In this document: in pieces, positions 36,001 to 39,000 of the stretch
Layout: every line of letters begins with the position of its first letter
Position numbering within the stretch: position 1 is the stretch's first letter
Virus record (IMG/VR): IMGVR_UViG_2541047910_000003
Location: 1-55,048 of that record
Length of the DNA: 55,048 nt
Strand: one strand, 5' to 3'
Source of the DNA: a virus
Lineage: Duplodnaviria > Heunggongvirae > Uroviricota > Caudoviricetes
Program-made: the position numbers

Positions 36001-39000
36001 TCCATCGCCCATGCCGCTGGCTCCGGTCGTTGACTTTGCACAGGTGGCGGCGACTTGCAGGCGCTTACGACCAGCAGAAACATCAGCACGGAGACTTTCG
36101 ATAGTCGCGTTAGCATCAGCAAGCTCCTTTGTGTATCTTGCGTCGAGTTCTGCTACATCACGTTGACGCTTCCGCATGTCAGCGATGGTGGCGTTCGCCT
36201 TCTCCAGTTCACTGGCCTTGTTATCGCGCTGCTCTTTGTAGGCGATTGCGTTATCACGGTAATGATTAACAGCCCATGACAGGCAGACAATGATGCAGAT
36301 AACCAGAGCGGAGATAATCGCGGTTAACCGACTCATGACATCAACACCCCAACGGCCAGAAACCACGGCCACGCATCGTTGCCATTCAATGCGAGCAACG
36401 CTGCCATGAAAAAGCAAATCATGCTCATTGCTGCCCCCACAAACAGACTTCACGCTCAATCTCACGGCGAGTCATCAGCCCTTTCCATTGCTTACCGCCA
36501 GCGTATGTCCAGCGACGTAGCTGGTCACATGCGCCATTGATATCGCCCTGGTTGATTTTGCGAAGAAGCGTCGATGTTCTGAAATTGCCTGCGCCCACGT
36601 TATAGACGAACGAATAAAGAGCGCCGCGCGTTGTTTCCGGTATATCGACTTTGATGTACGGGTTAATTTGTCTGGCGACCGTGGCAAGGTCTTTATTCAG
36701 GAGGGCTTTGCATTCTGCTTCGGTATACGTTTTACCGAGCATGATGTCTTTTCCGGTATGTCCGTGACATACAGTCCATACACCAACAATATCTTTGTAT
36801 GGTATGTAGCTGACACCTTCCAGACCATCGTTACCACTTGGCCCAGTGATTAACACAGATGCTATAGCAATAGCCCCACCACTTATCGCCGCTATTACGC
36901 TATTTCGTAGTGCCGGTGACATTGCCATTCAATCTGTCCTCGCGCTCTTTGCGCTTGTAGTACCAGTTGATGCCAAATGTGCCGACAGTACAAAGAATAC
37001 CAATGATGACAGCCCAGTCATTCAGGGAGAGAATGCCACCCATCGCAGTCAGTCCTCCGAAGCTGTAACTGAACCATTCTCTGATTTTGTCCATACGGTA
37101 CATGCTCTACCCCTTCATTGAGGGGATTTGCTCTATTTAATTAGGAATAAGGTCGATTACTGATAGAACAAATCCAGGCTACTGTGTTTAGTAAACAGAT
37201 TTGTTCGTGACCGATATGCACGGGCAAAACGGCAGGAGGTTGTTAGCGCGACCTCCTGCCACCCGCTTTCACGAAGGTCATGTGTAGAAGGCCGCAGCGT
37301 AACTATCAATGATGAATTCAGGATAGCCAGTGGCTACGGCTCAGTTATGGTGCTGGTTAACGGACTTGAACCGCTACCCATTCGCTTACAAGGCGACTGC
37401 TCTACCATTGGAGCTAAACCAGCATATTTGGCGGGACAGCGTGGACTCGAACCACGATAAGAAGGTTAACAGCCTTCCGTAATGACCTTTATACGACTGA
37501 CCCAAATAAAAAATCCCGAAACCGTTGTGCAGGCTCTAACTATTACCTGCGAACTGTTTCGGGATTGCATTTTGCAGACCTCTCAGCCTGCGATGGTTGG
37601 AGTTCCAGACGATACGTCGAAGTGACCAACTAGGCGGAATCGGTAGTAAGCGCCGCCTCTTTTCATCTCACTACCACAACGAGCGAATTAACCCATCGTT
37701 GAGTCAAATTTACCCAACTTTATTCAATAAGTCAATATCATGCCGTTAATATGTTGCCATCCGTGGCAATCATGCTGCTAACGTGTGACCGCATTCAATA
37801 TGTTGTCTGCGATTGACTCTTCTTTGTGGCATTGCACCACCAGAGCGTCATACAGCGGCTTAACAGTGCGTGACCAGGTGGGTTGAGTAAGGTTTGGGAT
37901 TAGCATCGTTACAGCGCGATATGCGGCGCTTGCTGGCATTCTTGAATAGCCGACACCTTTGCATCTTCCGCACTCTTTCTCAACAACTCTCCCCCACTGC
38001 TCTGTTTTGGCTATATCAACCGCACGGCCTGTACCGTGGCAATCTCTGCATCTTGCGCCCGGCGTCGCGGCACTACGGCAATAATCCGCATAAGCGAATG
38101 TTGCGAGCACTTGCAGTACCTTTGCCTTAGTATTTCCTTCAAGCTTTGCCACACCACGGTATTTCCCCGATACCTTGTGTGCAAATTGCATCAGATAGTT
38201 GATAGCCTTTTGTTTGTCGTTCTGGCTGAGTTCGTGCTTACCACAGAATGCAGCCATTCCGAATCCGGCTTGTGATTGCGCCATCCCCATAGCAGCCATC
38301 ACATCAGTACCGGAAAGAGAGTCAGAAGCCGTAGCCCGTGGTGAGTCGCTCATCATCGGGCTTTTTGGCGAGTGAAATTTAGCTACGCTTTCGAGTCTCA
38401 TCGTCTTCCCTTTTTGCCTGGCGTGACCATCAGGACGCCGTTAACTATTACGTGACGCTCGCCTTTGCTGTCTCGGTTGTACTTGAGCACTGTTCCTCTT
38501 GCGCAGGAAAGCATCCTCGCCACTTCGGTCTGATTGCCTCGTGTCTGGATAAGAAGCTCTGGTATCGTTTGAATTGTGGCGTTCATACGTTCTCCAGTTC
38601 GGTGATTTTTATTCCAAGCCTTCCGCCTGGTACTTTCACGCCACGAATTACGCGAATGTCATCGAATTGCTCGTCGTCTTCCGCAAATCCGGCGTGGATA
38701 AGGGAGTCGAGTAAACCCTTCAGGATGTTATCGAGGTCGCGGCGGCGGGAGTCTGGAACGTCTGCGATGACTTTGATGCGGAGTCGTGATTTGGTGAAAA
38801 TATCTAACTTGAGTTGGCGGATGATTTGCTGAACGTCTTTTCGGTATTTCTGGCCTTTATCGCTGATGTAGTATTGGCTTCCCCGTCTTCGCCAGTAGGT
38901 ATTCACCGACGGCGGGTATGGAAGCACAAACTGATATTCGTTCATGACTTAATCTTCCCCTCCTTCAGCAGTATCGCCTGCGTCCTGATCACGCCTTCGA

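Follow-up and report, generated by a model that had tools for sequence, protein, structure and literature searches.

Why would a temperate phage carry two transfer RNA (tRNA) genes at the head of its late operon, between the late terminator and the lysis genes? The question is raised by a prophage lying in positions 1 to 55,048 of the IMG/VR virus record IMGVR_UViG_2541047910_000003, a stretch of 55,048 nucleotides (nt) that we refer to as the window. A sequence-only reading of it had proposed two tandem tRNA-like genes on the minus strand at 37348-37503, with anticodons UGU (Thr) and GUU (Asn) and both ending in CCA. The window was scanned in full for tRNAs with ARAGORN and the Rfam tRNA model RF00005 (gathering score 29 bits). 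ARAGORN found three tRNA genes in the whole window, Thr(UGU), Asn(GUU) and thrW Thr(CGU), and the ARAGORN and Rfam calls for the first two span exactly the proposed interval, with the proposed strand, anticodons and CCA ends:

37429..37503, minus strand: tRNA-Asn, anticodon GUU, 75 nt (ARAGORN; Rfam 55.3 bits)
37424..37428, minus strand: intergenic spacer AAUAU, 5 nt, separating tRNA-Asn and tRNA-Thr (read from the sequence)
37348..37423, minus strand: tRNA-Thr, anticodon UGU, 76 nt (ARAGORN; Rfam 61.5 bits)

Both genes encode the 3' CCA, cover model positions 1-71 of 71 (E-values against RF00005 of 6e-11 for tRNA-Thr and 2.9e-9 for tRNA-Asn) and score far above threshold, and PGAP annotates the pair in E. 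coli chromosomes as tRNAs, not pseudogenes; the outcome that the sequence-only reading had named as refuting, scores below threshold or a pseudogene flag, did not occur. We conclude that the 37348-37503 pair is confirmed as two real tRNA genes, Asn(GUU) and Thr(UGU). It is also already known: both tRNAs are 100% identical to those of phage 21, Sf6, HK446, BTP1 and Kapi1, and the pair is the well-known phage 21/Sf6-type late-leader cassette, in keeping with the earlier expectation that some other lambdoid phages have functional tRNA genes at the same position; the sequence-only reading did not name this cassette and, for function, went no further than a codon-usage check. As to its use, we consider it probable that these are two functional late-leader phage tRNAs, most likely compact nuclease-resistant spares with a secondary codon-supply benefit.

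For both RNAs the cloverleaf is the minimum-free-energy fold. tRNA-Thr is the cleaner of the two, although it has C14 where almost all tRNAs have A14 (C or U stands there in all variants) and the uppermost pair of its anticodon stem is a mismatch, G27·A43. tRNA-Asn had been described as the weaker cloverleaf, with one acceptor mismatch and a poor D-arm, and this is what we see: U4·U69 in the acceptor stem and a D-stem in which U13·U22 joins three Watson-Crick pairs. Its discriminator is G73, and U8, A14, G18G19, T54-Ψ55-C56 and U33 are all present. The identity nucleotides of E. coli threonyl-tRNA synthetase (ThrRS) are G1-C72, C2-G71, G35 and U36, and those of asparaginyl-tRNA synthetase (AsnRS) are G34, U35, U36 and the discriminator G73. 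Both sets are complete, in tRNA-Thr as GCUGGUU...AACCAGC-A-CCA with anticodon UGU and in tRNA-Asn as anticodon GUU with ...CCC-G-CCA. Charging of tRNA-Thr by ThrRS is further implied because the published ACA-decoding rescue used an identical tRNA.

Are these folds maintained? At least 120 IMG/VR contigs contain an exact copy of the unusual Asn D-arm, and the distinct tRNA sequences among the matches listed (21 Thr, 17 Asn) were compared with 500 shuffles and slid-partner controls; the invariance of the Asn D-arm, which was the search word, is an artefact of this collection. In tRNA-Thr, pairs 3:70, 5:68, 6:67 and 49:65 have changed on both sides, with 94.6% of cells paired. The corresponding pairs in tRNA-Asn are 5:68, 6:67, 7:66, 28:42 and 29:41, together with the variable 4:69 (90.2% paired). 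None of the 500 shuffles reached the covariation score of either tRNA, and the slid controls were far lower. The cloverleafs of Asn and Thr are kept by compensatory change, that is, by selection on structure. The anticodon loops are nearly invariant, with a single U33A variant of Asn among the distinct sequences, and the irregularities themselves recur: G27·A43 in 21 of 21 Thr variants and U4·U69 in 15 of 17 Asn variants. Identity to host genes is 70.5% (tRNA-Thr to thrU) and 61.5% (tRNA-Asn to asnT), values that rule out recent capture from the host.

These data bear on the idea that the pair consists of decaying, non-functional pseudo-tRNAs hitch-hiking at a mosaic junction. Such decay would fit U4·U69 and the weak D-stem of Asn and the C14 of Thr in place of the near-universal A14, and in relatives the second tRNA is decayed (phage L/ST64T, 42 bits) or chimeric (JLK-2012, 49 bits). 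Scores far above threshold, compensatory substitutions and annotation by PGAP free of any pseudogene flag all argue the other way, as does the finding that the window's Asn and Thr alleles are the commonest among the at least 120 contigs listed; for Thr, the idea is already refuted by the published rescue with the identical sequence. We regard it as extremely improbable.

The two altered relatives deserve description in their own right. The second tRNA of phage L/ST64T (locus L008, 1288-1360), annotated tRNA-Leu(UAA), scores 42 bits, is rejected by ARAGORN and has only its first 13 nt in common with the Thr gene; it is probably a decayed copy. In the 'tRNA-Thr' of JLK-2012 (locus L009, 1288-1363), nt 1-25 are of phage type and the remainder is nearly identical to E. 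coli thrU, with two anticodon-stem mismatches, an Rfam score of 49 bits and rejection by ARAGORN. The chimera indicates that phage and host-type tRNA genes have recombined. The same JLK-2012 locus contains a match to the small RNA STnc100 (2268-2440, 107 bits Rfam), downstream of the tRNA array and tciA/tciB.

Against what would such tRNAs be held as spares? Phage Thr(UGU) tRNAs rescue cells from P2 Old by resisting cleavage (PMC12445682). The tRNA-Thr of phage 21 ('tRNA-Thr21'), which has a shorter anticodon stem plus C28U/G42A, protects against P2 Old toxicity and is uncut in vitro (PMC12445682). Given the Thr(UGU) of HK446, the phages HK97, HK542 and Bas34 again plate on Old+ cells at nearly wild-type levels, whereas E. 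coli thrU gives no rescue (bioRxiv 10.64898/2026.07.10.737580), and nuclease-resistant Thr(UGU) tRNAs against Old are also known from T4 and Bas32/33 (PMC12445682; bioRxiv 10.64898/2026.07.10.737580). tRNA-Thr21, HK446 Thr and the tRNA-Thr of the window are one and the same molecule. The published Old tests were made by plasmid expression of the phage 21 or HK446 tRNA, whereas the window prophage is known here from its sequence. The anticodon arms compare as follows (positions 27-31/39-43, with the number of pairs; then 28-30/40-42; then 36-41, with an arrow at the junction of 40 and 41):

Window tRNA-Thr: GUCGC/GCGAA, 4/5 pairs; UCG/CGA; UAAGC↓G
Host thrU: ACUGA/UCAGU, 5/5 pairs; CUG/CAG; UAAUC↓A
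Window tRNA-Asn: GAAGG/CCUUC, 5/5 pairs; AAG/CUU; UAACC↓U
Host asnT: GCGGA/UCCGU, 5/5 pairs; CGG/CCG; UAAUC↓C

The window Thr has the published Old-resistance features, namely C28U/G42A, which alters the CNG motif, and a stem shortened by G27·A43. Counter-defence by Thr against P2 Old is therefore largely established, being experimentally grounded on an identical sequence.

A second nuclease brings in the Asn partner. AriB, the nuclease of PARIS, cuts Lys(UUU), Thr(UGU), Asn(GUU) and, weakly, Thr(CGU) between positions 40 and 41, beside U36-A-A-U39, and the Lys, Thr and Asn variants of T5 jointly neutralise PARIS (PMC12409363). U39 is absent from all phage-borne Thr(UGU) and Asn(GUU) genes compared (those of the window, a Klebsiella phage, T5 and Cyrano) and is retained in the host-like JLK-2012 chimera. 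From these comparisons the Asn may be a resistant spare against AriB. The literature on Old, PARIS and this cassette, as far as we surveyed it, does not state a role of Asn in counter-defence; the Old preprint writes that HK446 'encodes a single' tRNA (bioRxiv 10.64898/2026.07.10.737580), and the HK446 record annotates neither tRNA-Asn nor tRNA-Thr. With no Lys(UUU) copy in the window, the pair cannot be a complete anti-PARIS set. It is conceivable, though we are doubtful, that the Asn is AriB-resistant and the pair a minimal two-tRNA cassette against TOPRIM tRNases (P2 Old and the PARIS of P4-like satellites), which leaky read-through of tR' would supply to lysogens and in early infection and which Q would boost.

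How and when would the tRNAs be made? The surroundings bear out the placement that had been described, between Q/tR' and the lysis cassette:

37778..38401, minus strand: late antiterminator gene Q, lambda type, 207 amino acids (open reading frame (ORF); 100% identical to HK446 gp54 (Q) by tblastn)
37707..37735, minus strand: late promoter pR', TTGACT-17-TAAATT (promoter scan; nearly identical to the lambda pR' region)
37504..37700, minus strand: late leader with qut, the counterpart of lambda 6S RNA; tR' forms its end (~99% identical to lambda)
37504..37566, minus strand: tR' intrinsic terminator, a long hairpin and the U-tract UUUUUUAUUU (fold of -28.3 kcal/mol, z=-5.3)
37225..37260, minus strand: GC-rich hairpin with GUUUUG after it, in the interval from the tRNAs to the holin (-29 kcal/mol, z=-4.3)
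36900..37103, minus strand: first late gene, class II (HP1-family) holin, 67 amino acids (Pfam PF16080 Phage_holin_2_3, E=4.4e-21)

Homologues of Q are annotated as antitermination protein Q in Kapi1 and E. coli relatives, and the HK446 record labels the homologous promoter site 'similar to coliphage lambda PR''. From the inferred start the leader would measure 194 nt, the length of lambda 6S RNA. Its terminator is identical to lambda tR' save one base, and the U-tract ends at 37504, one base before tRNA-Asn +1. A minus-strand sigma-70 scan gave pR' only, with no second promoter upstream of the tRNAs; this result, together with the lack of space from the tR' U-tract to tRNA-Asn +1, rules out a promoter of their own. 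The hairpin at 37225..37260 is also kept in lambda and Kapi1 and might act as a weak terminator or else serve processing or stability. Endolysin and spanin ORFs lie downstream of the holin.

By analogy with lambda, the pair would be transcribed as RNA polymerase passes tR', massively under Q antitermination and possibly at a low level through terminator leakage from the constitutive pR'. Host RNase P and 3'-processing enzymes would excise the tRNAs from the transcript, CCA addition being unneeded, and the products would supply Asn(GUU) and Thr(UGU), ACA having no decoder other than Thr(UGU). With UCG/CGA in place of CUG/CAG and its short stem, the phage Thr would resist Old and replace the destroyed host tRNA, and would also serve the 3-fold higher ACA demand. 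The same spare-tRNA logic may hold for Asn, given that the three principal AriB targets include both Asn(GUU) and Thr(UGU) and that U39 is lost in both phage copies. With respect to timing, a list of five genes highly expressed in RNA sequencing of lysogens treats the BTP1 tRNAs, identical to those of the window, separately (PMC7067206), and we take this to mean that they too are highly expressed in lysogens.

Several observations weigh against the pair being resistant spares. The spontaneous induction rate of BTP1 is high, so lysogen RNA sequencing is not decisive. Old and PARIS are triggered early, but tRNA synthesis that depends on Q comes late, so that the tRNAs in their native place could protect only through tR' leakage or by having been made beforehand; the Q gene itself has 4 ACA codons. 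The Old-rescue tRNA was expressed from plasmids, outside its native context (PMC12445682; bioRxiv 10.64898/2026.07.10.737580). Plasmid-borne viral Thr(UGU) alone failed to rescue lambda, and HK446 also has a protein inhibitor, Oad2, the authors of the preprint doubting that the tRNA is primarily anti-Old (bioRxiv 10.64898/2026.07.10.737580). For PARIS, the prime target Lys(UUU) is without a phage copy in the window, and the T5 Lys is needed for escape (PMC12409363). The loss of U39 in two tRNAs is statistically weak: a random anticodon pair would have both members among the 8 known Old/PARIS targets with a probability of ~0.03, a post hoc figure. Three of the five tRNA types found at this site are known Old/PARIS targets (hypergeometric p ~0.04, post hoc), and the Gly(UCC) of some arrays at the site keeps the host CNG motif; with that p value being post hoc and the Gly copy not visibly resistant, we do not rely on the composition of whole arrays as anti-Old or anti-PARIS. 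Lastly, codon supply alone accounts fairly well for Thr.

Could codon demand then be the whole answer? Pure codon supplementation would have the tRNAs only raise the supply for codons that the AT-richer phage favours (ACA; AAU/AAC), speeding late synthesis. With the annotated K-12 genes of one 50-kb region as host reference, ACA amounts to 16.7 per thousand phage codons vs 5.4 in the K-12 sample (3.1-fold) and to 32% vs 10% of Thr codons (p=2e-24). The SfI paper gives the same bias (17.3 vs 7.1), and the host has a single gene for this codon, thrU (PMC12445682). The SfI and phage L papers favour supplementation, and the head of the late operon matches peak translation demand. Asn codons, too, are 1.3-1.45-fold more frequent, at 48.8 per thousand in the phage and 54.4 in its late genes vs 37.6 in the K-12 sample. 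However, this excess is due wholly to AAU: AAC is not enriched (24.5 vs 23.8), and E. coli has four Asn tRNA genes. Codon supply therefore fits Thr moderately and Asn poorly. The SfI authors drew the same conclusion and found no bias explaining Asn. Moreover, ACA is only sixth in enrichment, yet no tRNA is carried for the higher-ranking AGA, AGG, AUA, UCA and CGA. Supplementation also leaves unexplained why the anticodon-stem differences fall exactly at the Old/AriB determinants and why G27·A43 is invariant, and overexpressed host thrU gave no rescue from Old where the phage tRNA did (bioRxiv 10.64898/2026.07.10.737580). As a complete explanation it is unlikely, and we retain codon supply as the secondary benefit of resistant spares.

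The position of the pair suggests another reading, in which it acts in cis: the tRNA folds would mainly be sites at which RNase P or RNase E cuts the leader and terminator away from the lysis mRNA, or would stabilise that mRNA, and decoding would be incidental. The pair does come straight after tR', right where a very long polycistronic mRNA has its 5' end, and we also count on this side that lambda and P22 do without the tRNAs, so that the block is dispensable for late expression. Near-invariant anticodon loops, identity nucleotides, CCA, T-loop and G18G19 nevertheless exceed the needs of a processing signal. The identical Thr decodes ACA in vivo, and a comparable rescue tRNA no longer rescued once its anticodon was mutated (PMC12445682). 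A cis-acting role is very unlikely, and tRNAs that act in trans as spares remain our preferred reading.

What does lambda have at this spot? The flanks on both sides of the tRNA genes are ~97-99% identical between lambda and the window, and what differs is a swapped block of 163 nt in lambda and 159 nt in the window, which runs from the tR' U-tract to AACTGAGCCGTAGCC. The lambda locus had been said to hold only degenerate sequence, which we could not substantiate. ARAGORN finds no tRNA there, and cmscan nothing tRNA-like even at E<=10. Global alignment of the lambda block with the tRNA block gives z=1.4, with 102 of 1000 shuffles scoring as high, and the best local alignment is 9 nt, matched by 142 of 1000 shuffles. 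The sole likeness is ~8/9 bases (AAC[C]AGCAC) at the right junction, not significant alone. Origin of the lambda block from a degenerate tRNA is thus not supported by ARAGORN, cmscan or the alignments, which stay at the level of shuffled sequence, and the comparison of the two sequences shows one module cleanly replaced by another at a mosaic junction. Among phages sensitive to Old, lambda is the classic case (PMC12445682; bioRxiv 10.64898/2026.07.10.737580), and the placement of the 156-bp tRNA block between lambda-identical flanks may be relevant to its sensitivity to P2 interference.

The third tRNA gene of the window leads to the prophage as a whole, a P22-like element of 39.6 kb between exact 23-bp repeats of the P22 attachment (att) core, inserted at thrW and with virion genes of HK620/Sf6 type:

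14009-14031 and 53621-53643: att core repeats, 23 bp, exact copies of the P22 att core
53605-53680: thrW, tRNA-Thr(CGU), intact (Rfam 71.8 bits, best-scoring tRNA of the window)
53795-55048: aldehyde-dehydrogenase-family (proA-like) gene, adjoining thrW
17427-17493, plus strand: sar antisense RNA, full-length (Rfam RF00262, 77.7 bits), which marks the P22-type immI (ant) region

Insertion at thrW recalls a proposal made for HK446 in the Old preprint, that the tRNAs compensate for a host tRNA damaged by integration (bioRxiv 10.64898/2026.07.10.737580). The prophage does sit at thrW, and HK446 has the same integrase and attP, but the intact thrW, at 71.8 bits, largely refutes the proposal, and integration of this type rebuilds the gene (phage L paper). 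Nor does the anticodon fit, being UGU where thrW has CGU, and the attachment site has no relation to Asn. The cassette is also found behind different Q modules, and cassette phages integrate elsewhere, presumably Sf6 at argW and phage 21 at icd. Compensation for integration damage is hardly credible, and the spare-tRNA reading, which looks to nucleases instead of the attachment site, is kept.

Other features of the window are as follows. An ORF on the plus strand at 49330-49809 has a match at 49348-49707, 66% identical over 133/175 amino acids to HK446 gp27, the anti-Old protein Oad2, and no Pfam match; the HK75 homologue of Oad2, 54% identical, is inactive (bioRxiv 10.64898/2026.07.10.737580). 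The prophage has no Old-trigger set like Erf/Abc2/Gp33 of HK446: its recombination module is RecT + Gp157, and only a 21-amino-acid fragment matches gp33. With RecT + Gp157 in place of the HK446 set, an Old trigger within this prophage was rejected. A PADLOC scan of the flank and accessory ORFs returned only a repressor helix-turn-helix domain and a weak homing-endonuclease match and no defence system, on which ground we rejected a defence system in the window as the reason for the cassette. The weak match (E=4e-4) is to a 203-amino-acid ORF of the nin region (40632-41243, minus strand), which may be an inserted HNH/AP2-type endonuclease gene. Beyond the att repeat, positions 1-14008 are not core chromosome: GC content is 36-42% and codons are atypical, with ACA making up 44% of Thr codons. 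The flank resembles another mobile element, or a satellite, that would lie in tandem at thrW, and contains:

1558-2892: tyrosine integrase
2974-3687: Dit-like tail gene
5858-6886: capsid protein E-like gene
12143-12682: serine resolvase

What does the locus add to what was known? Its value as a discovery is small: annotation of the cassette goes back to the sequences of Sf6 and phage 21, and the Thr counter-defence was published in 2025-26. Its value for annotation is that the prophage, and ~6% of complete E. coli genomes (347-369 of 5,426 carry the pair), are marked as carriers of an Old-resistant tRNA-Thr. Carriage matters for the ability of a temperate phage to be induced, or to superinfect, in a P2 lysogen. 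The interest that remains lies in the Asn partner and in whether native expression from the late leader comes early enough.

How, finally, does the pair compare with known systems? A 171-bp block is 98-100% identical in 59 phage records, among them HK446, mEp506, Kapi1, Sf6, SfI, phage 21 and BTP1, and tRNA-Asn and tRNA-Thr are annotated in many of these. The Sf6 GenBank record places its tRNAs after 't R'' and describes them as 'similar to phage 21', and papers on SfI, phage L and epsilon34 describe a tRNA pair, the latter two for P22-like phages. A few phage-like plasmids also carry it. Phage 21, Sf6, SfI, HK446, BTP1 and Kapi1 share with the window the order Asn then Thr, the 5-nt spacer length and the location after the late-leader terminator and upstream of the holin; the sole difference of the Sf6 block from that of the window is inside the spacer. 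The neighbours vary. HK446, Kapi1, mEp506 and phiv205-1 have the lambda-type Q/pR'/tR' flank of the window, whereas in phage 21, Sf6 and BTP1 the cassette stands behind a 21-type Q, promoter and terminator; on the lysis side, Sf6 and Kapi1 have a lambda S-type holin and the window an HP1-type class II holin.

The wider collection shows the same modularity. Among the at least 120 contigs listed, ~93 leaders have a 21-type terminator with several different promoters, ~16 the lambda-type tR' (the group of the window), and the rest are Klebsiella-type. In all 21-type and lambda-type leaders among them, the tRNA follows directly after the terminator U-tract, the exception being the Klebsiella type. 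This start is kept whichever Q and promoter precede it, which argues that the cassette recombines as a unit between Q modules and lysis modules. The arrays called by ARAGORN among these matches are Asn-Thr in 96 cases, Asn-Gly(UCC) in 7 and Asn-Phe-Thr, with or without Arg(UCU) and Gly, in 7 contigs, besides a few other arrangements. At this site, in the loci L010 (1201-1520) and L011 (1201-1438) and in IMG/VR matches, Klebsiella-type phages have expanded Asn-Phe-Thr-Arg(UCU) arrays, with or without Gly, and E. coli phages also Asn-Gly(UCC) or Asn-Thr-Gly arrays. The array Gly(UCC) shares ~93% of its sequence with host glyT, whose anticodon stem it retains.

Outside this group, T5 has the same two isoacceptors, Thr(UGU) and Asn(GUU), with a base other than U at 39 beside the cut between 40 and 41, together with the Lys(UUU) that is required for its escape from PARIS and that the window lacks (PMC12409363, PMC11464382). 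Identity to the window is only 64% (Thr) and 61% (Asn); these are different alleles, and a shared origin is rejected. The ileZ-argN-argO genes of Stx phages (933W-type) occupy what we take to be the same niche, the start of a lambdoid late operon just after Q/pR'/tR'. Their isoacceptors are Ile-CAU, Arg-UCU and Arg-UCG, so that the GUU and UGU of the window do not make it that cassette, and they match the most phage-enriched rare codons AUA/AGA/AGG, which fits codon supplementation better than Asn-Thr does. Related arrays with Arg(UCU) were also seen among the matches. In Cyrano, an unrelated 108-kb phage (locus L134, 2973-3220), Asn(GUU) and Thr(UGU) are adjacent and followed by Ser, and the Thr is 80.5% identical to that of the window; this arrangement hints that the Asn-Thr pair travels together across phage groups.

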